NCBI GenBank assembly: GCA_020718065.1
Contig: DYDE01000005.1
Span: 1-64,000, forward strand
Source: Marinifilum sp.
Lineage (GTDB): Bacteria > Bacteroidota > Bacteroidia > Bacteroidales > CG2-30-32-10
Direction of reading: 5' to 3'
DNA: 64,000 bases
Made by a program: the position numbers and the translations under genes
Notes under the pieces: generated by a model
Database searches by the model: none
Told to the model about the DNA's origin: nothing
What the model saw: only the letters and a program-made list of their open reading frames with translations
In this document: positions 2,597-53,050 of the stretch, in pieces
How positions within the stretch are numbered: the stretch's first letter is position 1
Layout of the letters: each line of letters begins with the position of its first letter

Positions 2597-2661
2597 CTAT
2601 GTTTTACCCAGACACTAATAAATCAAAAACCATAAATAATAATTCACACAGAAATAAGCAT

Positions 2662-2669
2662 TACCTTTG
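2662..2669 (+). promoter_or_regulatory. Candidate Bacteroidota -7 promoter box (TACCTTTG)
   Basis: Matches TAnnTTTG, 22 nt upstream of the ATG at 2692. Confidence 0.4.
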
Positions 2670-2691
2670 CATTATTAAAATTCACTGCGTT

Positions 2692-3237
2692 ATGCACCTT
2701 CTAAATAGAATTATCATTATTACATTTCTTTTTGGCATTAGTTATTCAGCAATGTCGCAAAAGGACAGCATACCCAAAAACCCATTTAAAGACAAATTAT
2801 ATACCGGTGGTGGATTAGGTTTGCAAATTGGCGATTACACATTAATACAGGTTTCCCCAATACTGGGATACAATATTACAGAAAATCTATCAGTAGGTAT
2901 AGGCGCAACTTATCAATATACAAAGTACAGGCAATACAATTATGATTTTGTAAGCAATATGTATGGAGGAAGTATATTTGGTCGCTATATTATTTGGAGA
3001 AGCATATTTGCCTACGCAGAAGACGAATTGCTCAATATCGAATACAGAGAACAAGTAAACAATATTATATATAAGAAAAGAACAAATGTAAATAGCTTGT
3101 TTGTTGGCGGAGGAGTTCGTCAGTTGGTTGGGGAAAACTCAGCCATGGTACTAATGTTATTATGGAATCTTAACGAAACTCCTTACACCCCATATAACAA
3201 TCCTATAATTAGAATAGGATTTGAAATCGGATTATAA
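2692..3237 (+). CDS. Hypothetical secreted / outer-membrane beta-barrel-like protein
   Basis: The internal ATG at 2692 gives signal peptide MHLLNRIIIITFLFGISYSAMSQ. Alternating aromatic/Gly-rich segments follow. The upstream part of the ORF (2599-2691) overlaps the promoter box and the palindromic element. Confidence 0.45.
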   Translation: MHLLNRIIIITFLFGISYSAMSQKDSIPKNPFKDKLYTGGGLGLQIGDYTLIQVSPILGYNITENLSVGIGATYQYTKYRQYNYDFVSNMYGGSIFGRYIIWRSIFAYAEDELLNIEYREQVNNIIYKKRTNVNSLFVGGGVRQLVGENSAMVLMLLWNLNETPYTPYNNPIIRIGFEIGL

Positions 3238-3249
3238 AACATCAATAAA

Positions 3250-3429
3250 TTGACACAGGAAATTATTGTATATATTATTCTATTGGTAGTTTTGACTTTT
3301 GCAGGCTTTCTTATCTATAAATCATTTAAAAAACCAGCAAAATGTTGCAACGAATGTGCGAATAAAAGCTGTGATGGTTGTCCCCTCGATGATCTGAAGA
3401 AAGAAATAGAAAAGAAAAAAGTGCACTAA
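3250..3429 (+). CDS. Small Cys-rich membrane protein (resembles the FeoB-associated Cys-rich family), TTG start
   Basis: Hand translation: (L/M)TQEIIVYIILLVVLTFAGFLIYKSFKKPAKCCNECANKSCDGCPLDDLKKEIEKKKVH, stop at 3427-3429. One TM helix then a CC..C..C..C cluster. Absent from the ORF track because it is 59 aa with a non-ATG start. Confidence 0.4.
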   Translation: MTQEIIVYIILLVVLTFAGFLIYKSFKKPAKCCNECANKSCDGCPLDDLKKEIEKKKVH

Positions 3430-3714
3430 AGTGAACTAGAGTTTGAAGTGCCTAACCTGAATAATTCATGAATATATTTAGAATATTGTATTTCTTCGTG
3501 TTACTTCGTGATGTACTTTGAGTTACTTTGTGGAAAAAAATTATTAACCACAAAGATTCACAAAGGATTGCACAAAGGCACACAAAGTTTATGAATTAAT
3601 CAGGCTAAAGTAATAAACAAAAAACCACAAATTCCAAAATTATTCCTAATCAGTGAATCTGTGGTTATACTTTGAAAAATTGTAAATCGTCAATCCAAAA
3701 TCGTAAATCGTAAA

Positions 3715-5028
<1,314 letters not shown>

Positions 5029-5030
5029 TT

Positions 5031-5061
5031 AAAAAAGGATAAAGCAAATATACTTTATCCT
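5031..5061 (-). terminator. Rho-independent terminator after rplQ
   Basis: 8-bp stem ggataaag/ctttatcc (5037-5044 / 5053-5060). On the minus strand it is followed by a U6 run (plus-strand a31-a36). Confidence 0.55.
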
Positions 5062-5088
5062 AATATTTAAACAATGAAAAAAAGAAAA

Positions 5089-5649
5089 TTATTCTGGAGT
5101 TTCAGTTGATGTATTTTCAGTTTCTTCCTTTTTTGCCTTTGGTTTTTTAGTTGTTTCTTTTTTCTCAGCAACAGGTTTTTCAGTCTTTTCTGTTTTTGCA
5201 ACTACTTCCTCTTTTTTGGTTTTAGTTTTAGAACCACGACGGGTAGTTTTTGCCTTTGCTTTAGATTCTTTAGTAATACCTAACATGTTTTCGTTATAAT
5301 CAACTAATTCTATCATACACATTTCGGCATTATCACCCATACGATTTCCAGTTTTTAAAATTCTGGTGTAACCACCGGGGCGTTGTCCAACTTTAGTAGA
5401 TACTTCTCTGAAAAGTTCAGTAACAGCAGTTTTATCTTGCAAGAAACTAAATACAGTTCTTCTAGAATGTGTTGAGTCTGATTTTGACTTTGTAATTAAA
5501 GGTTCAACAACTGTTCTTAACGCTTTGGCTTTAGCCAGAGTTGTATATATGCGTTTTTTCATTATTAAGGATGATGCCATATTAGCTAGCATAGCCTTTC
5601 TATGAGAGCTTGTTCTTCCTAAATGATTGATTCTTTTTGCGTGTCTCAT
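5089..5649 (-). CDS. rplQ: 50S ribosomal protein L17 with a Lys/Glu-rich C-terminal extension
   Basis: [24 protein letters not shown]... Last gene of the alpha operon. Confidence 0.95.
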
Positions 5650-33797: not shown

Positions 33798-34961
33798 TTA
33801 TTGACAAGGTAATGGAGTAGTATTTACTTTAATTACCTTATTGGTAGAAGCAGTCCCAAACCAATTAACAGTTTCCTGCACCATTTTCCATTGAAAATTA
33901 TAAGTGCCACTTGTAGTAGGAGCTTTTACAGTGAAATAGAAAGTAACAGATTCACCTGGTTCAACAGGACTTTTTGGCAAATTAACTCGATGAATACCCC
34001 AAATTAAATTATTTTCTGGATTTTGTGATCCAAGTTTAAATGGAGTACTTCCTCCGGATATCCAGGTGGAGGTGCCAGTGTTTTTAAAAGTCATAAAAAC
34101 TGTAAAATCCTGACCTGGATCCACCTTTGATGGTGCACTCATTCTTACAAAAGAAGCATTATTAACTAAAGTTGGTGCTGTAACTGTAATTACTTTATTT
34201 TCTGTGTGTTCCCCAAACCATTCAATTAATTCCTGTACCATTCTCCACTGAAAGTTGTAGATGCCAGGAGTTGAAGGTGCTATACATTCAAAATTAAAAG
34301 TCGCATTTTCCCCTGGATTTATGGGCGAAGATTGAAGTTCATCTCTTATTGTTGCCCATAGATTCCAAGGATCATTCAGGGTGCCGAGTCTGTGAGGATT
34401 ACTTCCACCGGTAACCCAAGGTTTTGTGCCGTTGTTCTTAAATATAACTTTTGCCTGAAATGTTTGTCCTGCCACAACAGAAGATGGGGCTGTCAACGAA
34501 ATAAATTGGGCATTGTTTTGCTGAGGAACAACTGTAATTACCTTGTTTGCAGATGACTCTCCAAACCATTCAATTAATTCCTGCACCATTCTCCATTTAA
34601 AATTATAGTTACCAGGAGTTGAAGGTGCCACACAGTTGAATGTAAATGTTACACTCTGCCCCTGAATAATGGGTGTCGATGAAAGATCCACCCTGATTGT
34701 TGCCCACAAATTCCAGGGATCATTTTCTGTACCAAGTCTGTAAGGATTTGCACCACTACTTGTCCATGCTGTTGTCCCCGTATTCATAAATGTAATTACT
34801 GTCTGAAAAGTTTCACCAACAACTACCTGGCTGGGTACTGCTATTGAAACAAAATGTGAATTGTTTTGTGCACCCACAAATGCAGTGCTTAAACCTAAAA
34901 AAACTGAGAGCAAAAGAAGTCGCTTCAGCAAAATTGAAAATCTTGTTTTTAATGTTTTCAT
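33798..34961 (-). CDS. Secreted protein with three tandem ~115-aa Ig-like repeats (NBR1/FW-like)
   Basis: Signal peptide. Three copies of F.N.G...W...G.NP.RLGT.NDPWNLWATIR...APSTPG.YNF.WRMVQE.IEWFGE. The family name is from memory of the NBR1 Ig-like domain pattern. Confidence 0.55.
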   Translation of the reverse strand: MKTLKTRFSILLKRLLLLSVFLGLSTAFVGAQNNSHFVSIAVPSQVVVGETFQTVITFMNTGTTAWTSSGANPYRLGTENDPWNLWATIRVDLSSTPIIQGQSVTFTFNCVAPSTPGNYNFKWRMVQELIEWFGESSANKVITVVPQQNNAQFISLTAPSSVVAGQTFQAKVIFKNNGTKPWVTGGSNPHRLGTLNDPWNLWATIRDELQSSPINPGENATFNFECIAPSTPGIYNFQWRMVQELIEWFGEHTENKVITVTAPTLVNNASFVRMSAPSKVDPGQDFTVFMTFKNTGTSTWISGGSTPFKLGSQNPENNLIWGIHRVNLPKSPVEPGESVTFYFTVKAPTTSGTYNFQWKMVQETVNWFGTASTNKVIKVNTTPLPCQ

Positions 34962-34981: not shown

Positions 34982-35014
34982 TGCTTACTCTTTAATGGGT
35001 TTTCGGCATCCCCC
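34982..35014 (-). promoter_or_regulatory. Conserved 5'-leader motif (copy 1), 20 nt upstream of the ATG
   Basis: Sense strand GGGGATGCCGAAAACCCATTAAAGAGTAAGCA. About 25/28 aligned positions are identical to the element upstream of the peptide gene at 41328-41360. Confidence 0.5.
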
Positions 35015-35483
35015 TTTTTTAATTTATAATAAAATTGAAATGATAAAAATTATTAAAAAAACTAAATTAAATGAAGAGACAAATAGATACTTTATATAAT
35101 TTTATTTAAACTTTAAAAACACAAATAATTAACATGGCAATTGTTTTTGGCACTATACAGTAAACATCAACAATAAACACAAAACCCGATACAGCAAAAA
35201 TGCAGCTTATTTTAAATAATGGATTAGTAAAACCGGGATTTGATATCAACCCTCTTCGGCTATGAGGCTGTGGCCCTTTGGGTTGAGGCTGTGCCACCTC
35301 TCCACTATCCTGTTGACTTACCTGCACTCTTATTTTATTTTAAACCACAAGCTGGCGCTCTTTTTTAGTGATCGTTGCACAACTTCAGAATCAATTTTTT
35401 TTCTAGAAAGAGAACCCTGCTATGCGGCATGAAAATTATTAACAACATTGGTGGACAGCCAAAACCGAACGTAGTTAGAAAAA

Positions 35484-37142
35484 CTAATTGATCACAATTT
35501 TCTTATTTACCTTTTCATTTTGCATATATATAATTAAATTATAAACTCCTGCTTTTAATCCAGTAGTTTTAATAATTACTTTAGATTCATTGGTATTAGT
35601 GTCATAAACAACTTTCCCTAAAAGGTCACAAATACTGATATGAAGAATTGGAAAGCTTCCAGTAATAGTCAATAATCCTTCAGAAGGATTCGGAAATAAA
35701 GAGATATTGGCAGGTGATAACTTCTCAATCCCACCATTTCCTACTCTAATATATGATAATTTAATCTCAGAGCTGTTTCCCCAAGTGTTAATAATATTTA
35801 AGGTAACATCATAAGTACCAACAATATTATAAGTTACAATAGGATTGGAGGAATTGGATGTACCAGGTGTACCTCCTGGAAAAGTCCAGTTGTATGTGGA
35901 TGTTGAATGACCACCTGATATTATTGAAAAAAGAACCTGTTCTCCCTGGTCAACAGCTGTGTCATTGGCTGTAAAATTTGTTTTAGCAAGTTTACTTGTG
36001 AATTTATACATACCATCATTATTTGGATTATTGTTCCAACTACCAGCAAAAGCAACAGAATCATTTAACCATTTAATAGCAAGAAAATGTTTATTGTCTG
36101 TGGAAGGCATTTTTTGCCATGTATGTCCACCATCAAAGGAATAAGTTACTCCAGAATTAGTATGTTTAATATTATCCGAAGTTTCTTCTGAATGATTAAT
36201 ATTCTGTCTATCATTTATCATAGATGCATTGTGTCCTGTAGATACATATGTGTTGGGAGAACCAGGAATAGCTGCAAGTGCAAAAAGATTTATAGGGCCG
36301 GTACTGTTCACTAAAGTCCAAGTATTACCGCCATCCGAAGTTTCATGAACATTCATAGTAGTTGCTGTAGAAGTTGCAAAACCGATTAATCCATGATTTT
36401 CATCATGAAAGGCAATATTTTTAAACCAACAATTTGGGGGAATTGTAATTCCAGTTGGTTTTCTAATCCAATGGTATCCTCTGTCCGTTGAAATATACAA
36501 ACTAGATGTAGAAGTAATAAAACAAAACATGCTATCACCAACTGTTTCAAAAGCACGAACAAATCCAATTTCTCCGCCTGTTTGAATCGTATCATTAATA
36601 TTTATTTGAGGAATCCGATTCCAAGCAGTTCCACCGTTTGAAGTAGTATAAATTTCAAAATAACCATTTCTGGTATTCCCATAAAAAACACCTTCGTTTG
36701 CGTTCCAAAAATGCAAACCATTAACATATGTGGATGAATTATTTTCTACAAAAAATTGTTGAACCCATGTTGCTCCACCATCTGTAGTTTTATATATACC
36801 ACATACGCTATCCTGGGCTCCATAAGAATGGTAAATACCTGCCCAAGCAATATTTTCATCAAAAGCAGAAATATTTGCTATATCATATATAGCTGTTCCA
36901 GAAATGACCTGACCTACTGTCCATTTTGCTCCTCCATTGGTAGTTCGAGAAAACTCATTAGATATATAAGGAGCATTTAATCCATCTCTGGCACTAATCC
37001 ATGCAATATCTTTACTTACTACACTTATATAGAAAGCTCCAGTAGATTCATTTGGGAAACCTGATACCTGCATTAACCACTGCGCATCAGTAAAAGAGGA
37101 AAACACAAGTATTAATCCTGAAAGTAATAATAATTTTTTCAT
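35484..37142 (-). CDS. BNR/Asp-box (sortilin/Ycf48-like beta-propeller) protein with PKD domain and T9SS C-terminal sorting domain
   Basis: Signal peptide. Asp-box motifs TTNGGAKW, TTDGGATW, TSNGGTAW, STDRGYHW, TSDGGNTW, SFDGGHTW. PKD-like FTANDT...YNWTFPGGTP...GTYDVTL. C-terminus LFPNPSEGLLTI...GVYNLII. Confidence 0.75.
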   Translation of the reverse strand: MKKLLLLSGLILVFSSFTDAQWLMQVSGFPNESTGAFYISVVSKDIAWISARDGLNAPYISNEFSRTTNGGAKWTVGQVISGTAIYDIANISAFDENIAWAGIYHSYGAQDSVCGIYKTTDGGATWVQQFFVENNSSTYVNGLHFWNANEGVFYGNTRNGYFEIYTTSNGGTAWNRIPQININDTIQTGGEIGFVRAFETVGDSMFCFITSTSSLYISTDRGYHWIRKPTGITIPPNCWFKNIAFHDENHGLIGFATSTATTMNVHETSDGGNTWTLVNSTGPINLFALAAIPGSPNTYVSTGHNASMINDRQNINHSEETSDNIKHTNSGVTYSFDGGHTWQKMPSTDNKHFLAIKWLNDSVAFAGSWNNNPNNDGMYKFTSKLAKTNFTANDTAVDQGEQVLFSIISGGHSTSTYNWTFPGGTPGTSNSSNPIVTYNIVGTYDVTLNIINTWGNSSEIKLSYIRVGNGGIEKLSPANISLFPNPSEGLLTITGSFPILHISICDLLGKVVYDTNTNESKVIIKTTGLKAGVYNLIIYMQNEKVNKKIVIN

Positions 37143-37384
37143 AGTTTTACAGATTTAAAAGTTATTTATCAAATGTAATTTCAGTAATTTGATTTGAATC
37201 TTATAAATCTTCAAGAGGTATAAAAAATCGTTAAATGGTCAATTATTTAGATATACTATGAGATGTTAATAATAAATCAATCTAGTGCCATTTAGATTTT
37301 TTTAAGTTTATAATATGAATACAAAATATATAAAACTCTCAAAAAAAAATTATTTGTCTGAAATTGGATCAAAAAAGAGAAGAA

Positions 37385-37418
37385 AATAACCATTTAGCGA
37401 AAATAAAAACCGTTTAAA
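37385..37418 (+). promoter_or_regulatory. Two direct repeats (ATAACCATTTAG / AAAACCGTTTAAAG), candidate LytTR binding sites
   Basis: AACC cores at 37388-37391 and 37408-37411, spacing 20 bp. The 11-mer AACCGTTTAAA is identical to the minus-strand 41488-41478. Confidence 0.5.
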
Positions 37419-37450
37419 GTAAAAACGGAATTTGTATATTAAATAAGTAT

Positions 37451-37458
37451 TATTTTTG
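37451..37458 (+). promoter_or_regulatory. Candidate -7 box (TATTTTTG) with -33 TTTG at 37431-37434, for the kinase/regulator operon
   Basis: Matches TAnnTTTG. It lies 39 nt after the proximal AACC core and 49 nt before the ATG at 37508. Confidence 0.45.
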
Positions 37459-37507
37459 AGTTTGAAATAAAAATGTAAAACATTGTGTAAGTTTAGTTTG
37501 GTAAATT

Positions 37508-38584
37508 ATGTTAAGTGAAATTTATAATAAAAGGACAAATTTTTGGATTTACCAAATTCTGGGGTGGATTGGATTTTATATAATGGTAACAACGAGAGAA
37601 ACCTTACAGATAATACAGGATAAGTCGAATTTAAGCAACATAATTGAGGAATCTCTTTCATACATAATTTATGTCCTTTTGGGATTTTTATTTACTATAT
37701 TACTCAGATACATTTATCAATGGTTCTATCGAAAACAAAATCAAATAATCAAAACTACTGGTTTTATTATACTTATGACCTTTTTAGTTACCTTAATTCA
37801 TACAGTTTTGGTTAATTATATTTATTCTTTACTAATAAAACCGATTAACACACCTAATTTAATATTTCTTTTAATTCATATTATTTGGAATTTGCCTGTT
37901 TATTTTGGGTGGAGCATTCTATATTTCGGTATTAAATACTGGAATCAATCGGTTTTTGAGAAGGAAAAATCAGAAAAAGCAATTTTTTTAGCTCAAACCG
38001 CACAATTACAAATGCTGCGATATCAATTGAATCCACACTTTCTGTTCAATTCACTAAATTCTATTACCGCATTGATCGATGAAGATAAAAAGACTTCAAA
38101 GGATATGATAGCTGAACTGGCGGATTTTTTGCGTTACTCATTAATTAGCAAGAACTATACTGATATTCCTTTGGAAGAAGAACTTAAGGCAATTAGACTT
38201 TATTTTTCGATAGAAAAGAAAAGATTTGAAGAAAAGCTGGAAGTTGAATATGAGATCGCTCCTGAAGCAGAAAAGTTTCCAGTGTTAAGCTTGCTGTTGA
38301 ATCCAATTGTCGAAAATGCGATCAAATATGGTATGCTCACCAGCGTTTTGCCATTGAGAATTGCCATCATTGCTAAGATTGTAAATCAACATCTGATATT
38401 GCAAGTTACAAATACCGGTAAATGGATTGACTCTGTCAAAAATGATAATAATAATGGGACCAGAACTGGTTTAGAAAACATTAAATTACGACTTCTTAAC
38501 GCCTATTCTGACAAAGCATCATTTCATATTGGACAGATTGATGATAAAGTAATTGCTACAATTGAAATACATGGAAAATCATAA
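37508..38584 (+). CDS. Sensor histidine kinase, LytS/YehU type (multi-TM input domain)
   Basis: ~5 N-terminal TM helices. LQMLRYQLNPHFLFNSLNSI (His_kinase region) and N-box LLLNPIVENAIKYG. Confidence 0.85.
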   Translation: MLSEIYNKRTNFWIYQILGWIGFYIMVTTRETLQIIQDKSNLSNIIEESLSYIIYVLLGFLFTILLRYIYQWFYRKQNQIIKTTGFIILMTFLVTLIHTVLVNYIYSLLIKPINTPNLIFLLIHIIWNLPVYFGWSILYFGIKYWNQSVFEKEKSEKAIFLAQTAQLQMLRYQLNPHFLFNSLNSITALIDEDKKTSKDMIAELADFLRYSLISKNYTDIPLEEELKAIRLYFSIEKKRFEEKLEVEYEIAPEAEKFPVLSLLLNPIVENAIKYGMLTSVLPLRIAIIAKIVNQHLILQVTNTGKWIDSVKNDNNNGTRTGLENIKLRLLNAYSDKASFHIGQIDDKVIATIEIHGKS

Positions 38585-39299
38585 ATATACTGCCATCATA
38601 GTTGATGATGAGCGCTTAGCAAGAAACGCCTTAAAAACATTATTGGAAGAAATTGATGAAATTGAATTGACAGGAGAGGCTGATAGTGTGTCTAATGCCA
38701 TATCATTGATTGCTAAAGTGAAGCCAGATATTATCTTTCTTGACATTCAAATGCCTGGAGAATCTGGTTTTGATCTGATTGAAAAAATTTCAACAAATAT
38801 TAAAATCATATTTGTTACTGCTTTTGATGAATTTGCATTGAGGGCATTTGAAGTTAACGCCATTGATTACTTGTTGAAGCCTGTTTCTGTTATACGTTTA
38901 AAAACCAGTATAGCCAGGCTATTCGAAGAAAATAGTATAGATGAAACAGCAAAAAAAAAGTTAGTTGCAGGCGATCGCTTATTTCTTCTCTTTAATAACA
39001 ATTATCTTTTTCTTAAAATTGAAAATATTTTACACATTAGTTCTTCTGGAGATTATTCAGAGCTTCATCTGATTGATGGGAAAAAGGGTTTAACAAATAA
39101 ATCAATGCAAGAATGGGAAGCAAGGCTTCCTATAAATACCTTCTGCCGTATACACCGCTGTACTATCATTAATATGGATTACGTAGTAAAGGTGGATGAA
39201 TGGTTTAATAATGCTTTTCGAATTCATATGAAGGGAATAGAAGAACCTTTTATAATGAGCAGGCGATTTTCATCAGTAATCCGAAACAGGTTCAATTGA
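38571..39299 (+). CDS. LytTR-family response regulator
   Basis: REC domain (IIVDDERLARN...DIIFLDIQMPGESGFDL). C-terminal LytTR domain (ILHISSSGDYSELHL...FCRIHRCTIINMDYV). The start at 38571 overlaps the kinase stop. Confidence 0.88.
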   Translation: MENHKYTAIIVDDERLARNALKTLLEEIDEIELTGEADSVSNAISLIAKVKPDIIFLDIQMPGESGFDLIEKISTNIKIIFVTAFDEFALRAFEVNAIDYLLKPVSVIRLKTSIARLFEENSIDETAKKKLVAGDRLFLLFNNNYLFLKIENILHISSSGDYSELHLIDGKKGLTNKSMQEWEARLPINTFCRIHRCTIINMDYVVKVDEWFNNAFRIHMKGIEEPFIMSRRFSSVIRNRFN

Positions 39300-39376: not shown

Positions 39377-40867
39377 TTAAATAATATCATATATAAACGC
39401 AGGTGCTTTATTGCATCTGGGATCAGGAAAATCCCAATTTTCATCTCCATACACTTTTAACACATCAGCCCAACATTTGTTAGGATATTTATTACAACAT
39501 TCATCAAGTATTTCGCAATTTTTACATGCACTTTCTTCCCGAAAATCATCTTTTGTTAAATTGACCCATTTTAATGAAGCTGGAGAATTCCATACTTCCT
39601 CAATAGAATTGTTAAGAATATTTCCAATAATAAATTTTTGTTTCCAATACATTTGCTCGCAAATAGTAACATTGCCATCAGGAAGAACATACATATGCGA
39701 ACGATTTGCCGAACAAACAGCTCCCGGAAATGATTTACTTCCTTTTTCAGCTGTAAAATAACCTCGGTCCAAATGAGATTTATCTATATCAATCCTTAAT
39801 TTTTGCAATTTATTAAGTTCATCTATATTCTTAAGAGCTTCTTCACGTTCTTGTTTTTGAAGTTTTATCTTTTCAAAATCATTAGTACTATATAGGGATT
39901 TAAATGCAATTCTAACTTGCCAGCATTTAATTTTTTTTAATGATGATAGATAGTTGAGCATTTCCAATAATTCATTTTTATCAGCATTTAATCTAGTTAA
40001 AATAGAAATAACATGATATGAGATTCCATATTCATCCATCGTTTCTAATGTTTTCTTCATATTTGCAGCATAGTTTCCAGAGACACCAAGAATTTCATAC
40101 AGCTTTTGTGGAGAAAGAGAATCAAAGGAAAATTGAAAAGTTAGATTTGTAAATTGTGTCAATTTAATGATATCCTCTTTCTTAATAGGGATTTTGGTCG
40201 AAATAAATATTTTTTCATATCCATGTTTGTAAAGCTCTTTTAAAAGATCGTACCATCTGTCATAGAGGAAAAACTCTCCACCACCGATTTGTATTTCTTT
40301 TAATTTTATTTTTTTTGATTCTACAATTAAATCTATAATACGATCAAAAGGAATGGTGCACGAAAAATCATTATTTTTGTCAGCATAGCAATAAATACAA
40401 TTTGTTACACAGCGATTGGTTACCATAATGGTTATGGAAGAAGGGCATTTCATTAACCTGGCCGATTCAAAATCTAATTCTGAATAAGTAAAATCTTCGG
40501 GAGTATAAGTATAGTTGATTTTAAGCTGTTTTTTGTATTTAATGACGATCTGTTTAGGGAACCTAAAGGTAGCTCCATTATACTGCGTATATATGGTTTC
40601 TTTATTTTCGATAAAGGGATTAATAAGCGCAATAGTTTCTTTTTTATTTAAACTTAAAAATTCGGTTAAGTTCTCAACCGCCTTATCAATGGTTATAGGA
40701 TTAGAAAAAAAAGACAAGATCATTGCCTGGGCCGGATGAATAAAAGATAACCATTCTTTGTTTGAATTTTCACATTGCGATTCGGAATTAGCAATAATTA
40801 CACTTCTTTTAATATCATTTCTGAAGTTGTAGTCAGGATTAAGGATAAATTTTTCTGAGTTTGTCAT
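39377..40867 (-). CDS. Radical SAM/SPASM-domain peptide maturase with an N-terminal RRE-like domain
   Basis: CVTNCIYC is CX3CX2C. C-terminal auxiliary-cluster motifs are CSANRSHMYVLPDGNVTIC (CX12GX4C) and CKNCEILDECC (CX2CX5C). The ~130-aa N-terminal extension has a PqqD-like pattern (IHPAQAMILSFFSNPITIDKAVENLTEFL). Confidence 0.85.
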   Translation of the reverse strand: MTNSEKFILNPDYNFRNDIKRSVIIANSESQCENSNKEWLSFIHPAQAMILSFFSNPITIDKAVENLTEFLSLNKKETIALINPFIENKETIYTQYNGATFRFPKQIVIKYKKQLKINYTYTPEDFTYSELDFESARLMKCPSSITIMVTNRCVTNCIYCYADKNNDFSCTIPFDRIIDLIVESKKIKLKEIQIGGGEFFLYDRWYDLLKELYKHGYEKIFISTKIPIKKEDIIKLTQFTNLTFQFSFDSLSPQKLYEILGVSGNYAANMKKTLETMDEYGISYHVISILTRLNADKNELLEMLNYLSSLKKIKCWQVRIAFKSLYSTNDFEKIKLQKQEREEALKNIDELNKLQKLRIDIDKSHLDRGYFTAEKGSKSFPGAVCSANRSHMYVLPDGNVTICEQMYWKQKFIIGNILNNSIEEVWNSPASLKWVNLTKDDFREESACKNCEILDECCNKYPNKCWADVLKVYGDENWDFPDPRCNKAPAFIYDII

Positions 40868-41041: not shown

Positions 41042-41305
41042 TTAATACCACTGAATAATTCTATGATTTCGGGTACAATCACCTCCACCAGCACCCCACA
41101 TTCGTCCAGAACACACATTTCCTCCGCAAAAATTATTACTCAAGCCTCCGTCACAAGCTTGATGGGATATACATTCAGCTCCAGTGGTGCAGGTTCCAAC
41201 ATTATCACCGCACTCACCACCATTAATTTCATTTAATTGTTTGGCATTCATTAATTCGCCTAGATTTAACTTTTCATTAGTTAATTCACTTAATTTTTTT
41301 TTCAT
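41042..41305 (-). CDS. RiPP precursor peptide: double-glycine leader plus Cys/Gly-rich core
   Basis: The leader is MKKKLSELTNEKLNLGELMNAKQLNEINGG (30 aa). The core ECGDNVGTCTTGAECISHQACDGGLSNNFCGGNVCSGRMWGAGGGDCTRNHRIIQWY (57 aa) has 7 Cys and 12 Gly. The gene lies directly upstream of, and co-oriented with, the rSAM/SPASM gene. Confidence 0.75.
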   Translation of the reverse strand: MKKKLSELTNEKLNLGELMNAKQLNEINGGECGDNVGTCTTGAECISHQACDGGLSNNFCGGNVCSGRMWGAGGGDCTRNHRIIQWY

Positions 41306-41327: not shown

Positions 41328-41360
41328 TGCTTACTCTTTATAGGATTTTCAGCTTTCTCC
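41328..41360 (-). promoter_or_regulatory. Conserved 5'-leader motif (copy 2), 22 nt upstream of the ATG
   Basis: Sense strand GGAGAAAGCTGAAAATCCTATAAAGAGTAAGCA. See copy 1 at 34982-35014. Confidence 0.5.
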
Positions 41361-41416
41361 TATTGTTATTGCGCGCAAACAATATCTTTATAAATTCCAT
41401 AGCGTTTTTATTTTTA

Positions 41417-41424
41417 CAAAACTA
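41417..41424 (-). promoter_or_regulatory. Candidate -7 box (TAGTTTTG) for the precursor/maturase transcript
   Basis: Plus-strand caaaacta matches TAnnTTTG. It lies 39 nt downstream of the proximal AACC repeat core, with no good -33 element. Confidence 0.45.
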
Positions 41425-41457
41425 TTTAATAACTAAACTATAATAAAAGGGTTTTCT

Positions 41458-41516
41458 TCTAGTGGTTATTATATAGTTTTAAACGGTTACTTTTAAAGTT
41501 AAGCGGTTAATTATAA
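41458..41516 (-). promoter_or_regulatory. Three direct repeats (TTAACCGCTTAAC / GTAACCGTTTAAA / ATAACCACTAGAA), candidate LytTR binding sites
   Basis: On the minus strand the AACC cores end at 41505, 41485 and 41464, spacing 20 and 21 bp. Confidence 0.5.
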
Positions 41517-42061: not shown

Positions 42062-43009
42062 ATGTTACAAAAACAGAATAATTGGCTGAACATGGCAACA
42101 ACTAGCTTATTGGTGCTGGACACAGAACCTCTAGTTGTAAATAGCATTGTGGAACTAGGGGAATCGGTAAGTGGTTTGAGAAGCTGTGTTAAAAGTATTC
42201 GTGCAACTGCAACTGAGCAGGTGCAGAATATAAAAGGTGTAGCTCAGGAAAAGCTACTAAATAAAACTAATCTGGCTCATTCTGCAGCTTTGGTAGCAGC
42301 AGGGCTTAAAACTTTTGCTCATAAAAACAAGATGTATGATCTTGAAACAAGGGTTAAGTGTAAAGAAAAATCATTGTTAAAGCTGAATGATAATATGTTG
42401 ATAGAAAAGGCAGATTTTATTTTACAGAAAGTGAAAGAACATCAAACTGCATTAATGCCATATGGTATTGTAGTTGCTGACACTACAAACTTGTCGGATT
42501 ATTTAACAATTTATTTAGAAAAATATAATAATCCAACTTTGGCTATTGAAAAACGCAAGTTCTATACTAAAAAACTTAGTGTTCAATTTTCGATATTATC
42601 GGATATACTTCGCAATGAAATTGATGAATTGATGATAATTATTGCTAATACGCATCCAGATCTGTATAAACTTTATAAAAATGCAAGGGTTATAATTGAT
42701 CGCCATGGTAAGACTAAGGAGGATAAGGTGGTTGAAGGTATTGGTGATATTTCAACAACTGTTTGTGCTGCTTTTGATGGTAGTGTGATAGAAGGAGTTG
42801 AATTAGAATTAATAGACAGTAAGGATAAAGTAGTTTTAACTGTTGAAACAGATGAAATGGGAGTAGGTTATTTTGAAAAAGTTGTTGCAGGAACTTACAG
42901 GATAAGAGCAAAACAGGATACTTACATTGATAAATTGTCGGAAGAAATAATTGTTAATCCGGGTGATGAGCTTGAAATTGATATGATGCTTGAGGCTTTG
43001 ATTGAATAA
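42062..43009 (+). CDS. Hypothetical protein: helical N-terminal region plus a C-terminal carboxypeptidase-regulatory-like (prealbumin fold) domain
   Basis: No signal peptide or TM helix. The C-terminus GSVIEGVELELIDSKDKVVLTVETDEMGVGYFEKVVAGTYRIRAKQDTYI resembles CarboxypepD_reg-type beta-sandwiches. Confidence 0.4.
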   Translation: MLQKQNNWLNMATTSLLVLDTEPLVVNSIVELGESVSGLRSCVKSIRATATEQVQNIKGVAQEKLLNKTNLAHSAALVAAGLKTFAHKNKMYDLETRVKCKEKSLLKLNDNMLIEKADFILQKVKEHQTALMPYGIVVADTTNLSDYLTIYLEKYNNPTLAIEKRKFYTKKLSVQFSILSDILRNEIDELMIIIANTHPDLYKLYKNARVIIDRHGKTKEDKVVEGIGDISTTVCAAFDGSVIEGVELELIDSKDKVVLTVETDEMGVGYFEKVVAGTYRIRAKQDTYIDKLSEEIIVNPGDELEIDMMLEALIE

Positions 43010-43074
43010 TGAGAATAAATAATTATTGGATTGAGGAACCCTCTGTGGAAACAGGGGGTTTTTTATTGGCCTCT

Positions 43075-43440
43075 CCACTTCGGAAGAACGGGGGATGGAA
43101 CGCTGATGACGCTGATTGATCTGATTTTCGTTGATATTTTCTCGCAAAGGCGCTAAGACGCATATCTTTAGAGTTGGAAGAACGGAGGATGGAACGTTGA
43201 TGACGCTGATTTATTATGATTATTATGATTTTGCCACCAAAGCTCAAAAACACCAAATTTCTCCAAACTTTATCTATAATTAAGAAATTGAACGCTGATG
43301 ACGCTGATTGAGCTGATTTTCGCTGATATTTTCTCGCAAAGGCGCTAAGACGCATATCTTTAGAGTCGGAAAAACGGAGGATGGAACGCTAATGACACCG
43401 ATTTATTATGATTATTATGATTTTGCAACCAAAGCACAGA
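43075..43440 (+). repeat. Interspersed-repeat cluster, same family and orientation as 30091-30425
   Basis: ggaacg.tgatgacgctgat modules at ~43097, 43190, 43291 and 43386. Around 43190-43270 the element reproduces ~85 nt of the 120-bp unit (..tgattttgccaccaaagc.caaaaacaccaaatttctccaaa). Confidence 0.8.
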
Positions 43441-43696
43441 AGCAAGATATCTAAACTAAAGTTTTAATGAAGGCATGAGATTGACCTCTCCCCTAGCCCT
43501 TATCCAATTGGAGAGGGGAATTGCATTTGTGGTGATTATTGAGTTTCTAGAAATAAAGAAAGAGATAGATGCTATCGTTTGCAGACGATAAATATACCTT
43601 GAAAGATTTTGTTTTTATAGACCTCAATATTACGGATGCTTTGGAATGAATCGGAGATTTATCGGAGATGAATTTGACTGGAATTGGAACAATTAA

Positions 43697-43725
43697 AAAA
43701 CGACCTCTGAAAAGGAGGTCGTTTT
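43697..43725. terminator. Bidirectional hairpin terminator
   Basis: aaaacgacctc-tgaaaag-gaggtcgtttt with A-run and T-run flanks, ~185 nt downstream of the GWxTD gene stop. Confidence 0.5.
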
Positions 43726-43908
43726 CTATAATATTCAAAAGTTATACTTTACAATGCTTTGGTAATCCAAATTAATAAAGCCACTTAGGCGCAAAGACAT
43801 AAAGAGTTCACAAAGAAAGAAACAAAAAAATCGTATATTCTTGGTGTATTGTGGTCAATAAGTACTCTACAATTTCTTATATCATAACTTATTTAAATAA
43901 GGTTAAAA

Positions 43909-45384
43909 TTAATAATTTTTGAAGTTTTCAATTAGTTTGCCACCATAGATACCATCTTCATCTGGTTGTTTTTCATAATTGAGCACGTTATTGTAATCAC
44001 CTTTTTTGATTTTATTCATCCAACCTAAATCAGAAACTTCTCCATTAACATCAGAATTAATAAGTTCATAATTATTAGCGGCTTCATCACGACTACAGAA
44101 AACAAACTTTTTATTTGATTGACTTCCTACTCTATAGTAATGCCATATTTCGTAAGGGTATGATCCTTGATCAAAAGGAGCTTGCAGGATACTATTTGGT
44201 GGTCCATACTGAAGATATACTCTGCCCATATCGGTTAGATAACCTTTTTGATATCCTGTGGAGAAACTAGCATTTACTTTTAGAACTTCCATGTGGTAAG
44301 TATTCCATGCTTGTTCGGGATTGGTGTAATTTCTATCCATCCAAAATTTTAATATATATTTCTGAAGTTTATCGATACTAACATCCTTTTGTGCTACCAA
44401 AGCATCTGCAAGTGCAACTTCGATCTGGGTTGAAATAGGATAAAGACATCTAACATATTCAATAAGAGAATCGCGGTTAATAATTTTTTCAACAAAGCTG
44501 TTTTTTACAGCCAATAATTCAAAATCGATTTTATTAATTAATTTAGGATTGCTGCGTTGAAAAAACATTTTATTTAAAGAAATCACTTTATTTTCTTTGT
44601 CTCTTATTTCAATCACTAAATTATAATTACCAGAAGGCAACTTATCTATTGGAATCTCTTGAAGAATAACATTAACTGGTTTGGTTGTTTGTGTTTTAAC
44701 ATTCCCTAAATCCTGGATTTCGGCTTTACTTTCAAATGCTTCTATATAAGATTTGGTTATATATTTTTCATTTACTCCAAATAATTTCTCAGTATTGTAA
44801 ACTTCGGAATAAAATGTGATTTTATTTACAGATTCGGGGTAGAAATTAATAACCATAGGAGATAAATCGTAGCCACTTTTAGAAAAAACAGTTGGAGTGG
44901 TAGTTGCTTTATAGGTCTCTATGGGTTGAATACCTGAAAGTAAAATCTTATCTGTAGGAAAATCGATATAAATAGAATCTTTTCCCTTCATGGTTTTATT
45001 TAATGAGTTTTTATCAGTAATTTCAATTTCGAGCCCATACGCTCCATTGGGAAGGGCAAAACGATGCTGGTCAATAAAATTAGTAATGCTTAAGGTATCG
45101 TCTTGTTCGGGAATATTAACTATATACTTGTCAAAAGCTTTAATAGTTTTATTTTGCGAAAAGATTAAAGTAACTTCAATGTTAGAAGTAAATTTGTTTT
45201 TTTCGTTTTTAACAAAATGAATGCTTTTGCCAGCAATAGCAAGATAGGTTTCGATATACGGTCCATCTTTAGGAGAATAAAAAGAAACATACGAAATGTA
45301 TGTTTGAAGCTTTTTAGCAAAGGTTTGATTGGAAAAACCAGCTATAAAAAGCGACATAATAATAAATGTACGAATTGTTTTCAT
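43909..45384 (-). CDS. GWxTD-domain protein (variant GYLTD motif)
   Basis: Signal peptide. C-terminal KGYLTDMGRVYLQYGPPNSI...YPYEIWHYY matches the GWxTD...YG.P....E.W.Y domain pattern. Confidence 0.65.
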   Translation of the reverse strand: MKTIRTFIIMSLFIAGFSNQTFAKKLQTYISYVSFYSPKDGPYIETYLAIAGKSIHFVKNEKNKFTSNIEVTLIFSQNKTIKAFDKYIVNIPEQDDTLSITNFIDQHRFALPNGAYGLEIEITDKNSLNKTMKGKDSIYIDFPTDKILLSGIQPIETYKATTTPTVFSKSGYDLSPMVINFYPESVNKITFYSEVYNTEKLFGVNEKYITKSYIEAFESKAEIQDLGNVKTQTTKPVNVILQEIPIDKLPSGNYNLVIEIRDKENKVISLNKMFFQRSNPKLINKIDFELLAVKNSFVEKIINRDSLIEYVRCLYPISTQIEVALADALVAQKDVSIDKLQKYILKFWMDRNYTNPEQAWNTYHMEVLKVNASFSTGYQKGYLTDMGRVYLQYGPPNSILQAPFDQGSYPYEIWHYYRVGSQSNKKFVFCSRDEAANNYELINSDVNGEVSDLGWMNKIKKGDYNNVLNYEKQPDEDGIYGGKLIENFKNY

Positions 45385-45596
45385 GATTTTTAATTGTTAA
45401 GTTCAATAAAAAGTTTTTTTTCTAAAGATAAAAAAAAAAGGGATTGTTTTTTGAAAAATTTATAAACGGTATCCTAAATTAATTAAACGGTAAAATTGAA
45501 GCAAAATTAGTTAATTCAAATTTAATAAATGTAGTTTATTATGGTCAAAAAGCGAAGCTAAATAAAAGAATGATTTCTTAATTAATATTTTTTTTG

Positions 45597-46721: not shown

Positions 46722-46761
46722 GGTTGACAAGTAGACAAGTTAACTTGTCTACTTGTCAACC
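46722..46761. repeat. Perfect 40-bp palindrome built from four GACAAGT/ACTTGTC half-sites
   Basis: ggTTGACAAGTAGACAAGTT|AACTTGTCTACTTGTCAAcc. It begins 3 nt after the permease stop and ends 47 nt before a -7 box. Confidence 0.85.
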
Positions 46762-46807
46762 CACAAAGGAAGTATCCATTTTCAACTATCTAATTAATAA
46801 TAAAAAT

Positions 46808-46815
46808 TACTTTTG
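46808..46815 (+). promoter_or_regulatory. Candidate -7 box (TACTTTTG) for the membrane LytTR gene
   Basis: Matches TAnnTTTG, 10 nt upstream of the ATG at 46826, which implies a very short leader. Confidence 0.4.
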
Positions 46816-46825
46816 GTTTGAAATT

Positions 46826-47692
46826 ATGAAAATAAAGGAATATTTTAAACAGCCTTACCCTGCAAATGATAATGCATGGAAAAATATTGCATTTATAAGT
46901 GTTTTTATACCTGTTTTCCTTATTATGTTCCAACCTTTTGGAATGAGTTTATATGAAAATAAATACAAAGCATTAAAAATACTGGGTTATGGCGGTGTTA
47001 CATTTGTAGTTGCAGCAATCAATCAAATACTTCTACAGTATATTTTTAAAAAGACATTTTCAGAAAGTAATTGGACAATAGGAAAAAACATGCTCGGTAT
47101 GTTATATACTATTTTTACTATCGGTCTTGGCAATTATATTTATACCAGTCTGGTCTTTTCATTTCTTCAATTTGATATATCACAAATTGTTATCTTTCAA
47201 ATAGTAACATTGATGGTTGCTGTAATTCCTGTAGGTTTAATCACAACTTTGCGCTATAATACTTTATTAGCAAAAAATCTTAAAATAGCAAGAGAGATAA
47301 ACATACAATTACCAAATCAAAAATTGGTACCAGACATACGAATGATCCGTTTTTCTTCTGAAAATGAAAAAGATATTATTGAAATAGCTGCTAATGATTT
47401 TCTATATATTGAATCAAATGGTAATTATTTAGAAATAAATTACATTGAAGAAGGAAAACTAAAAACATCCTCAGTTCGTAGTACCCTAAAAAGAGCTGAA
47501 GCATCTATGTCTGTTTCCACATCTATTGTGAAATGTCATCGGGCATTTTATGTAAATATCAATAAAATTAAAAAGGTTAATGGAAATTCCCAAGGTTATA
47601 AACTTTGTATAGAACATACTGAAAAAGAAATTCCGGTTGCCAGAAACTATTCCAAAACTATTAAGGAATTATTGAGCCCATCTTCAAAATAA
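46826..47692 (+). CDS. Membrane-anchored LytTR-domain DNA-binding protein (one-component)
   Basis: ~4-5 TM helices then a LytTR domain (FLYIESNGNYLEINYIEEGK...IVKCHRAFYVNINKIKKV). There is no receiver domain. The track's TTG start at 46724 lies inside the palindrome, so the ATG at 46826 is preferred. Confidence 0.75.
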   Translation: MKIKEYFKQPYPANDNAWKNIAFISVFIPVFLIMFQPFGMSLYENKYKALKILGYGGVTFVVAAINQILLQYIFKKTFSESNWTIGKNMLGMLYTIFTIGLGNYIYTSLVFSFLQFDISQIVIFQIVTLMVAVIPVGLITTLRYNTLLAKNLKIAREINIQLPNQKLVPDIRMIRFSSENEKDIIEIAANDFLYIESNGNYLEINYIEEGKLKTSSVRSTLKRAEASMSVSTSIVKCHRAFYVNINKIKKVNGNSQGYKLCIEHTEKEIPVARNYSKTIKELLSPSSK

Positions 47693-52012: not shown

Positions 52013-53050
52013 TTATTTTATCTCCCAAGTATCTCCACTGTTAAGCAAATCATCCACAGATTTAATAGTAGCAGATTTCTTAGCATTTAAAATTTGTTCT
52101 TCAACCATATCGTCATAAGTAGGAAACATAGCAGAACGGATAACACCAAGTGCAATAGGGAATGCAGGAGGTTGCATTTTAGCAAGCATCAAGTGTATAC
52201 CAGGATCTTGAGAATATTGGTCATGAACCAAAATGTCATTTTCAGTGATCCCATTTTCCCCAATTTTAACAATCTCTAATCCAGCTGTAGCCAATCTAAT
52301 ACCTTTTTCTTTATTTTTACCAAAAAGCATTGGTTCTCCATTTTTCAGATGTAACTGATGATCGTCTCTTAAATCTTTAGAAGTAATCAACTCATGAGTT
52401 TTATCAGCAAAAATCACACAATTTTCGAGGATTTCAATAACAGAAGTCCCATCATGACGAGCTGCTTCAAACATGACATCTGTCATCATTTTAATATTGT
52501 TGTCAACTACTCTAGCAAAGAAAGTTCCCTGAGCACCCAAAACAAGTTCACCTGGGTTAAAAGGATGTTCAATAGTACCCTGAGGAGAAGTTTTAGTTAT
52601 ACTACCCATTGGGGTAGTTGGGGAATATTGACCTTTTGTTAACCCATAAATCTGGTTATTAAATAACAATATATTTAAGTCAACATTTCTACGAATAATG
52701 TGAATAAAGTGGTTACCACCAATTGCCATTGAGTCGCCATCACCAGTAGCAATCCAAACACTAAGATGTGGATTAGCTATTTTAACACCGGTAGCAATAG
52801 CGTTTGCTCTACCATGGATTCCATGAAAACCATAGGTGTTAACATAATAAGGGAAACGAGAAGAACAACCAATACCAGAAACAACACAAAAATTTTCTTT
52901 TTTGTAGCCTATTTTAGGAAAAACATTGGCAACAGAACTAAGAATAGCATGACCACCACAACCGGGGCACCATTTTACCATTTGATCGCTAACAAAATCT
53001 TCTTTGGTTAACGGAACTCTTGACCTTTCAACGGTTAAATTTTCATCCAT
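52013..53050 (-). CDS. korB: 2-oxoglutarate:ferredoxin oxidoreductase, beta (TPP-binding) subunit
   Basis: WCPGCGGHAIL and GDGDSMAIGGNHFIH, the TPP-binding motif. Confidence 0.88.
   Translation of the reverse strand: MDENLTVERSRVPLTKEDFVSDQMVKWCPGCGGHAILSSVANVFPKIGYKKENFCVVSGIGCSSRFPYYVNTYGFHGIHGRANAIATGVKIANPHLSVWIATGDGDSMAIGGNHFIHIIRRNVDLNILLFNNQIYGLTKGQYSPTTPMGSITKTSPQGTIEHPFNPGELVLGAQGTFFARVVDNNIKMMTDVMFEAARHDGTSVIEILENCVIFADKTHELITSKDLRDDHQLHLKNGEPMLFGKNKEKGIRLATAGLEIVKIGENGITENDILVHDQYSQDPGIHLMLAKMQPPAFPIALGVIRSAMFPTYDDMVEEQILNAKKSATIKSVDDLLNSGDTWEIK

Follow-up and report, generated by a model that had tools for sequence, protein, structure and literature searches.

A predicted three-site LytTR operator upstream of a radical SAM peptide operon in Marinifilum sp.

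Three imperfect direct repeats precede a gene for a cysteine-rich precursor peptide in a 64,000-nucleotide stretch of a Marinifilum sp. contig (DYDE01000005.1, positions 1 to 64,000; hereafter the window). The peptide gene and the gene of its radical SAM/SPASM maturase form a predicted operon, and a sensor histidine kinase and a response regulator with a LytTR domain are encoded next to it. The explanation favored here, to which we assign a probability of roughly 0.78, is that the adjacent LytTR regulator binds the three sites and activates the peptide/radical-SAM operon. The observations behind it are the sequence of the repeats, the statistics of their pairing, a geometry common to several promoters of the window, and conservation of the motif together with the kinase/regulator family.

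Results

Three direct repeats and a predicted -7 box precede the peptide gene

Read on the minus strand, the repeat region runs …ataaTTAACCGCTTAACtttaaaaGTAACCGTTTAAAactatataATAACCACTAGAAgaaaacccttttattatagtttagttattaaaTAGTTTTGtaaaaa…, the repeats being followed by a promoter box. The three copies read tTTAACCGCTTAAC, aGTAACCGTTTAAA and aATAACCACTAGAA; the last base of the AACC core falls at 41505, 41485 and 41464, so that successive copies are 20 and 21 bp apart. All repeat and box coordinates of an earlier sequence-only reading of this region, its two spacings and its 39-nt gap were found correct when the sequence was re-read. Site 1, the distal one (TAACCGCTTAACT, 41497..41509, minus strand; core ACCGCTTA, 41507-41500), scored 14.9 bits with a matrix built from other genomes, described below. 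The middle site 2 (TAACCGTTTAAAA, 41477..41489, minus strand; core ACCGTTTA, 41487-41480) lies 20 nt past site 1 and scored 10.2 bits, and the proximal site 3 (TAACCACTAGAAG, 41456..41468, minus strand; core ACCACTAG, 41466-41459) lies 21 nt past site 2 and scored 11.1 bits. Between the 8-nt cores, spacers of 12 nt (sites 1 and 2) and 13 nt (sites 2 and 3) are left. The sequence TAACC[G/A][C/T]T is common to all three repeats, each of which reached at least 10 bits with the independent matrix, and sites 1 and 2 were also recovered by a repeat finder as direct-repeat family D2, an 18-nt direct repeat at a distance of 20 nt.

Downstream of the repeats, TAGTTTTG (41417..41424, minus strand) matches the consensus TAnnTTTG and is the predicted sigma-A -7 box of the operon. 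It starts 40 nt past the second C of site 3, and its TA is separated from the last AACC by 39 nt. According to work of Bayley et al. from 2000, the -33 element of Bacteroidota promoters, TTTG, is said to lie about 19–21 nt upstream of the -7 box. No TTTG was found between site 3 and TAGTTTTG, in agreement with the earlier reading, and the sole -33-like candidate there is a TTTT (41445..41448, minus strand) that matches the element in three of four positions and lies 20 nt upstream of the box. The missing -33 TTTG is consistent with an activator-dependent promoter. Because the box occupies positions -12 to -5 in flavobacterial start-site maps (PMC9723704), transcription is predicted to start near 41412 and to produce a leader of about 107 nt. 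Counted from this predicted start, the centers of sites 1, 2 and 3 would fall at about -91.5, -71.5 and -50.5, and site 3 would end about 10 nt ahead of the -33 position. A sigma-70 promoter (TTTAAA-18-TATAAT) lying inside the repeats was disregarded, the total of the scan that yielded it being equal to the shuffle expectation and the Bacteroidota sigma-A consensus being different.

The same region contains a 16-nt inverted repeat, complementary at 15 of 16 positions and with a loop of 31 nt; one arm (41465-41480) lies at the 5' flank of site 3, the other (41418-41433) at the -7 box. When the 600-bp region was shuffled 300 times, an inverted repeat of this quality turned up in only 4 of the shuffles. 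The symmetry also places TAGTTTTA on the plus strand (41473-41480), where it may be a -7-like box of divergent orientation.

The geometry recurs at the kinase promoter and at a divergent promoter

The operon predicted to be controlled starts with an open reading frame (41042..41305, minus strand) for the Cys-rich precursor peptide of 87 amino acids, which has a double-glycine leader (…LNEINGG, cut between …NEINGG and ECG…). Its second gene (39377..40867, minus strand) encodes the radical SAM/SPASM peptide maturase (PF04055 and PF13186), for which 628 homologues were found. The sensor histidine kinase (37508..38584, plus strand) has 358 amino acids, with a membrane N-terminus and a PF06580 core as its only Pfam match. 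The response regulator (38553..39299, plus strand) combines a receiver (PF00072) with a LytTR domain (PF04397), and its phospho-acceptor is Asp64 in FLDIQMP. The kinase and regulator genes thus converge on the peptide/radical-SAM operon and lie about 2 kb from the repeats.

Upstream of the kinase gene, TAACCATTTAGCG and AAACCGTTTAAAG (37387..37419, plus strand) are 20 nt apart and form the best pair of the window (12.2 bits). They are followed by a predicted -7 box, TATTTTTG (37451..37458, plus strand), at an offset of 40 from the proximal site, from which a start near 37463 is predicted. Back to back with this promoter, a candidate pair of 5.9 bits, TGACCATTTAACG / ATACCTCTTGAAG (37209..37241, minus strand; 20 nt apart), faces a divergent gene for a BNR/PKD protein sorted via type IX secretion (T9SS; 35484-37142, minus strand), and TACATTTG (37177-37170) follows it at an offset of exactly 40. 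At the peptide, kinase and T9SS promoters alike, TAnnTTTG starts exactly 40 nt past the proximal CC. The distal third site is peculiar to the peptide promoter within the window.

A weaker candidate pair, TTACCGTTTAATT / ATACCGTTTATAA (45460..45493, minus strand; 21 nt apart), ranks fourth in the window with 6.65 bits. It lies upstream of a GWxTD-domain gene (43909-45384, minus strand) and is followed by TATCTTTA (45423-45430) at an offset of 38; shuffles yield 0.157 pairs of at least 6.5 bits per window.

Pairing, unlike single-site frequency, departs from chance

Chance was assessed over the 64-kb window, that is, one contig read on both strands (128,000 positions). The single-site pattern TAACCNNTWRA gave 7 matches versus 5.3 expected, which is no enrichment, and a single-site search allowing two mismatches stayed at chance level. 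Single-site counts are thus uninformative, and only the statistics of paired spacing discriminate. When the pattern TAACCRYTWRA, derived from the three sites, was searched with at most one mismatch, 29 matches were obtained on both strands, and the only ones lying 19–22 nt apart were those of the peptide triple and of the kinase-side pair at 37387/37407. In 1,000 dinucleotide shuffles the mean number of such pairs was 0.026, versus 3 observed, and none of the shuffles had 3.

Since a pattern taken from the sites themselves would make the argument circular, a 13-nt matrix was built exclusively from other genomes, using 54 sites upstream of homologous kinase genes (consensus TAACCGCTTATCG). Ranked by this matrix, the top three pairs of the window at 20 or 21 nt were the kinase pair (12.2 bits) and the two pairs of the peptide promoter (10.2 bits each). 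Of 300 whole-window shuffles, 1 yielded a pair scoring 10 bits or more, as did 2 of 1,000 shuffles of intergenic DNA from the window. Single positions of at least 10 bits numbered 24 in the whole scan, of which 6 were located in the two intergenic regions flanking the gene cluster. Matrix and shuffles together uphold the five sites previously proposed, three at the peptide promoter and two at the kinase promoter.

The motif accompanies the kinase/regulator family in other genomes

A scan of a genome collection with the kinase retrieved 80 loci from Bacteroidota, Ignavibacteriota and other phyla, and together with a metagenome scan about 160 homologous kinase loci were obtained. A homologue of the regulator was present in 78 of the loci searched, directly downstream of the kinase in most. 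Within 250 nt upstream of the kinase, a CC[GA][CT]T pair spaced by 20–22 nt occurred at 26 of 75 loci, versus 2.5% of 2864 control chunks, and the histogram of offsets upstream of homologous kinases peaked sharply at 20 and nowhere else (30 observed, about 1 expected). At 51 loci outside the matrix, pairs of at least 8 bits had a density of 0.27 per kb within 1.5 kb upstream of the kinase, versus 0.006 per kb elsewhere. The distance to the promoter box was likewise retained: among 29 site pairs of homologous loci, TAnnTTT[GA] was found at offset 39 once, at 40 six times and at 41 once, with two others within 90 nt. By these comparisons of sequence, the motif is tied to the kinase/regulator family across genomes.

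Many homologous loci carry a second, opposite pair that faces a divergent gene for a large T9SS-sorted protein, as in the window. In the closest metagenomic relative (locus L086; kinase 57% and divergent protein 62% identical), the alignment keeps the T9SS-side sites, including their unusual CCTCT proximal core, and the -7 box. At another locus (L087), a pair lies just past the regulator gene, ahead of the gene for another T9SS-sorted protein, and a triple site was also found at locus L025. T9SS-secreted proteins are the usual neighbors and probable targets of the family. A peptide or radical-SAM gene was found near the homologous kinase at none of the approximately 160 loci.

The peptide operon occurs elsewhere without the repeats

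The closest homologues of the maturase, 69–78% identical, are encoded at three loci (L001, L002 and L003) in which the precursor peptide and a conserved leader are retained. None of these three loci has a LytTR/PF06580 two-component system like that of the window, and none has a strong site pair before the peptide genes; their single pair above 2 bits (6.1 bits, L001) lies inside the peptide coding region. They were considered as footprints of the peptide promoter and dropped in this role, being conserved from ATATTGTTTG on but unrelated and without sites upstream of it, and they serve instead as negative controls.

In L001, from another Bacteroidales genome, a peptide/radical-SAM operon 78% identical to that of the window stands beside a divergent response regulator of the sigma-54-activator type and a kinase (3956-5323 and 2623-3969). 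A TGGCAC element is located about 150 nt upstream of the peptide gene of L001. The comparison of L001 with the window suggests that the regulatory modules were exchanged while leader and operon stayed conserved. The closest homologues of the peptide operon lack the sites and the sampled kinase loci lack the operon, which indicates that the repeats travel with the regulator and not with the peptide module. The peptide promoter thus looks like a local recruit into the kinase/regulator regulon, an operator having been placed before an operon for a ribosomally made, post-translationally modified peptide (RiPP).

The predicted operator resembles that of E. coli BtsR

LytTR operators are built of repeats of 8–13 nt with spacers of about 11–13 nt, are located just upstream of the core promoter and are often autoregulatory (PMC4847170, PMC4064291, PMC6193735); the repeats lie about 10 bp upstream of the -35 element (PMC6193735). 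The window has three imperfect direct repeats with spacers of 12 and 13 nt and a local LytTR regulator with sites at its own promoter. The earlier reading of the repeats as a LytTR operator is therefore supported in silico by the architecture, the adjacent regulator, the same geometry at its operon and the enrichment across genomes. Its comparison with the AgrA, ComE and PlnC operators holds for architecture; in sequence, the nearest operator is that of E. coli BtsR (YehT) at btsT. A further argument, that a GTT in the complement of the sites echoes the LytTR core, is weak and unnecessary.

At btsT, an oligonucleotide (PMC4847170) read together with the genomic sequence gave three copies at offsets of 20 and 21. 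This YehT-binding fragment is laid out as GCCGCTCA-12-ACCGCTTA-13-ACCACTCA, compared with ACCGCTTA-12-ACCGTTTA-13-ACCACTAG in the window. YehT is known to bind a direct repeat with a 13-bp spacer (PMC4222967). The slot after the 13-nt spacer is occupied by ACCACTCA in E. coli and by ACCACTAG in the window, in the same direct orientation, and the core of site 1 is exactly the middle site of btsT, ACCGCTTA. Against the BtsR motif ACC[G/A]CT[C/T]A, as reportedly worded by Kraxenberger et al. in 2012, site 1 is an exact match, with one position deviating in site 2 and two in site 3. The promoters differ, being of the Bacteroidota sigma-A kind in the window (TAnnTTTG at +40) and of the sigma-70 kind in E. 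coli, where, by our own reading of the sequence, the closest hexamer resembling a -10 element is TAACTC, beginning about 32 nt past the proximal site.

Aligned over its full length, the regulator shares 34% identity with E. coli BtsR, has the same receiver-plus-LytTR build and retains the phospho-acceptor Asp. BtsR (NF008677) is also its best NCBIfam model, with 147.7 bits, below the cutoff of 246, so that it falls outside the BtsR equivalog. A sequence search of the PDB gave receiver-domain matches only among the best 60. The sensor of BtsS consists of a seven-helix pyruvate-binding membrane domain and a GAF domain. The kinase of the window aligns with BtsS in the core alone (BtsS residues 360-535, 32% identity), and the BtsS sensor region (described in PMC10653868) is missing from it. 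The targets are different too: the RiPP operon and T9SS-secreted proteins in the window, a CstA-family pyruvate transporter for BtsSR. Judged by regulator score, kinase sensor and target gene, the predicted system is not a BtsSR orthologue; it is BtsR-like at the level of the DNA.

Other LytTR systems share some of these traits. The operators of AgrA, ComE, PlnC/PlnD, FsrA and VirR, peptide-pheromone regulators of bacteriocin or virulence loci in Gram-positive bacteria, likewise consist of imperfect direct repeats about 12 nt apart that abut the core promoter (PMC4064291). The repeats of the window differ in sequence from the Agr/Com/Pln ones, and the host belongs to the Bacteroidota, with another promoter grammar. 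Kinases of Agr/Com/Pln systems are of a different class, HPK10, whereas that of the window is of the LytS type (PF06580). Geometry is also analogous in HdrRM and BrsRM of Streptococcus mutans, which have direct repeats with 11–13-nt spacers about 10 bp before the -35 element, mediating positive autoregulation and control of bacteriocin genes (PMC6193735). By contrast with the classical kinase/regulator phospho-relay pair of the window, the HdrRM and BrsRM regulators have no receiver and are held under a membrane inhibitor. The sites of Pseudomonas aeruginosa AlgR (CCGTTCGTC) have a CCGTT/CCGCT core in common with the motif of the window, but they are often single, far upstream or inverted, without its fixed 20-nt pairing (PMC4064291). 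Several homologous kinase loci have CCGCTCGTC or CCGTTCGTC sites.

A conserved RNA element in the leader, and other features of the window

The DUF805b RNA motif (Rfam RF02914) matches positions 41328..41362 on the minus strand, inside the predicted 5' leader of the peptide operon, with 40.3 bits versus a gathering score of 35.6. It recurs at 5563-5597 in L001 and at 1036-1070 and 1581-1615 in L002, each time in the leader of a homologous peptide gene. L003 has one copy (223-261), upstream of a predicted small gene (283-438) with a weak Bacteriocin_IIc match. Within the window it is also found at 34982-35016 (minus strand), before the gene of an Ig-like/CARDB-domain protein (33798-34961). From this distribution DUF805b seems not to be specific to DUF805 genes but to belong, in these Bacteroidales, to the leaders of small-peptide and secreted-protein genes in general. 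Just upstream of it, a hairpin or inverted repeat, ATTGTT-N10-AACAAT (about 41364-41385, minus strand), opens the conserved leader block. According to the leader alignment it is kept in both peptide leaders of L002, with a G-U change. The hairpin could be a 5' stem-loop of the mRNA or a DNA operator; the leader as a whole folds better than its shuffles (z = -2.5).

Several other repeats and site pairs were noted in the window. A pair at 53034/53014 (53014-53046, minus strand; TAACCGTTGAAAG / GTTCCGTTAACCA, 6.5 bits) was set down as probably due to chance. It falls within the start of the beta-subunit gene of a 2-oxoacid:ferredoxin oxidoreductase, where the alpha- and beta-subunit genes meet; the position is curious in that pyruvate is sensed by the regulator's E. 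coli relative. Two more pairs (34218 and 34566) were set aside as duplicates within coding DNA: 33 nt of near-identical sequence, AAACCATTCAATTAATTCCTG(T/C)ACCATTCTCCA, are present at 34218-34250 and 34566-34598 (plus strand), 348 nt apart, and their repetition is explained by internal domain duplication in the gene of the Ig-like repeat protein (33798-34961). The long intergenic region 43009-43909, which carries no annotated feature, contains two 158-nt copies, 92% identical and 192 nt apart (43095-43444), for which an Rfam search gave no match at the gathering score.

Discussion

The mechanism that we propose would start with the partner kinase (37508-38584), which would sense a signal and phosphorylate the regulator on Asp64. 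The phosphorylated regulator would then bind the three sites head-to-tail and cooperatively, at centers near -92, -72 and -51, all of them on one face of the helix as expected from the 20/21-bp periodicity. Once bound, it may recruit sigma-A RNA polymerase, or stabilize it, at this promoter, whose -7 box (TAGTTTTG) is good and which lacks a consensus -33 element; the operon encoding the double-glycine precursor together with its radical SAM/SPASM maturase would thereby be switched on. Through the two-site operators at the same distance from their -7 boxes, the regulator would also activate its own operon, a positive feedback, and the divergent gene for the T9SS-secreted protein. The identity of the binding protein, the activation, the transcription start and the cooperativity are predictions of this scheme. 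The third site may confer higher affinity or a sharper response.

Some observations weigh against this explanation. With two sites at each of the other promoters, the role given to the third is conjectural. The -7 box is predicted from its consensus, and the two strands of the window together contain TAnnTTTG 114 times. The chance tests extend over a single contig, and in neither scan was there a genome near enough to footprint the peptide promoter, the best kinase homologues being 57–58% identical. Finally, the window itself encodes a second LytTR-domain protein, 5 kb away.

An extension of the explanation would turn the locus into a quorum-sensing circuit, in which the exported, modified peptide is a pheromone sensed by the kinase, and the peptide operon and the system's own operon are both activated in response. 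The genes are adjacent, the precursor has a double-glycine leader, and the predicted operator is present at both the peptide and the kinase/regulator promoters, the double positive feedback typical of such loops. Gram-positive pheromone loci likewise have as targets an operon for a double-glycine-leader peptide and the operon of the regulator itself. A double-glycine-leader peptide gene with a predicted operator upstream is thus shared with the Agr, Com and Pln systems, but co-inheritance of peptide and kinase is not: the two-component family occurs without the peptide in many genomes of several phyla, none of the sampled loci having a peptide or radical-SAM gene nearby, and its usual company is that of T9SS-secreted proteins. 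For this reason an Agr/Com-like pheromone loop is not supported. Also unfavorable to it are the LytS-type core of the kinase, the failure to find a C39-peptidase exporter among the open reading frames inspected, and the homologous peptide operons that adjoin other regulators, such as the sigma-54 activator of L001. We therefore regard such a loop as unlikely. If it were true, the locus would represent an autoinducing peptide quorum-sensing circuit in Bacteroidota, formed by capture of a RiPP operon into a widespread BtsR-like regulon.

That the adjacent regulator binds the sites and represses, or acts in both directions by occluding an upstream element or looping the DNA, is improbable. BtsR is annotated as a "DNA-binding transcriptional dual regulator" in the RefSeq entry of E. 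coli K-12, and the inverted repeat between the flank of site 3 and the -7 box hints at some extra control. However, all three sites are located entirely upstream of the predicted core promoter (about -51 to -92), their phasing and the missing -33 element are typical of activator-dependent promoters, and the characterized LytTR operators in this position that are reviewed in PMC4064291 and PMC6193735 activate transcription.

It is very improbable that the repeats are read by a different LytTR protein, either one encoded off the contig or the one mentioned above (46724-47692, plus strand), which has a multi-helix membrane N-terminus and no receiver and is encoded directly after an ABC permease gene. 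The specificity of LytTR domains is not readable from protein sequence, and this second protein is encoded nearby. However, across genomes the motif is found together with the kinase/regulator operon, typically in the stretch immediately upstream, and the peptide-operon loci that have no such two-component system lack the motif, even L001, where a LytTR protein of 287 amino acids is encoded nearby. An origin of the repeats by chance, as functionless products of AT-rich intergenic DNA, is so strongly disfavored as to be hardly credible: the region is indeed AT-rich and full of low-complexity repeats, and loose single matches to the 11-mer are about as frequent as expected, but the 20/21-nt pairing is far above whole-window and intergenic shuffles, the independent matrix singles out exactly these sites, and the -7 box geometry is seen at three promoters of the window and recurs in other genomes.

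Activation by the adjacent regulator thus remains the preferred explanation, and the element is a predicted operator of a known LytTR kind, well supported but ordinary: a solid annotation and not a discovery. Little is known of how RiPP or bacteriocin-like operons are controlled in Bacteroidota; a 2023 survey of Bacteroidales RiPP clusters lists regulators, kinase/regulator pairs among them, without operators (PMC10352776). The locus offers a testable model of a RiPP promoter, with three sites, a distance of 40 nt, TAnnTTTG and no -33 element. The rule that it embodies, TAACCGCTTATCG repeated with a 20-nt period at 40 nt from a -7 box, is transferable and may allow prediction of the regulon of this family in Bacteroidota, Ignavibacteriota and neighboring phyla, the targets predicted so far being its own operon and T9SS-secreted proteins. 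The operator layout is near-identical to that of E. coli BtsR despite 34% identity between the regulators and a different sensor, which suggests that the grammar of LytTR operators can stay conserved over very long distances.

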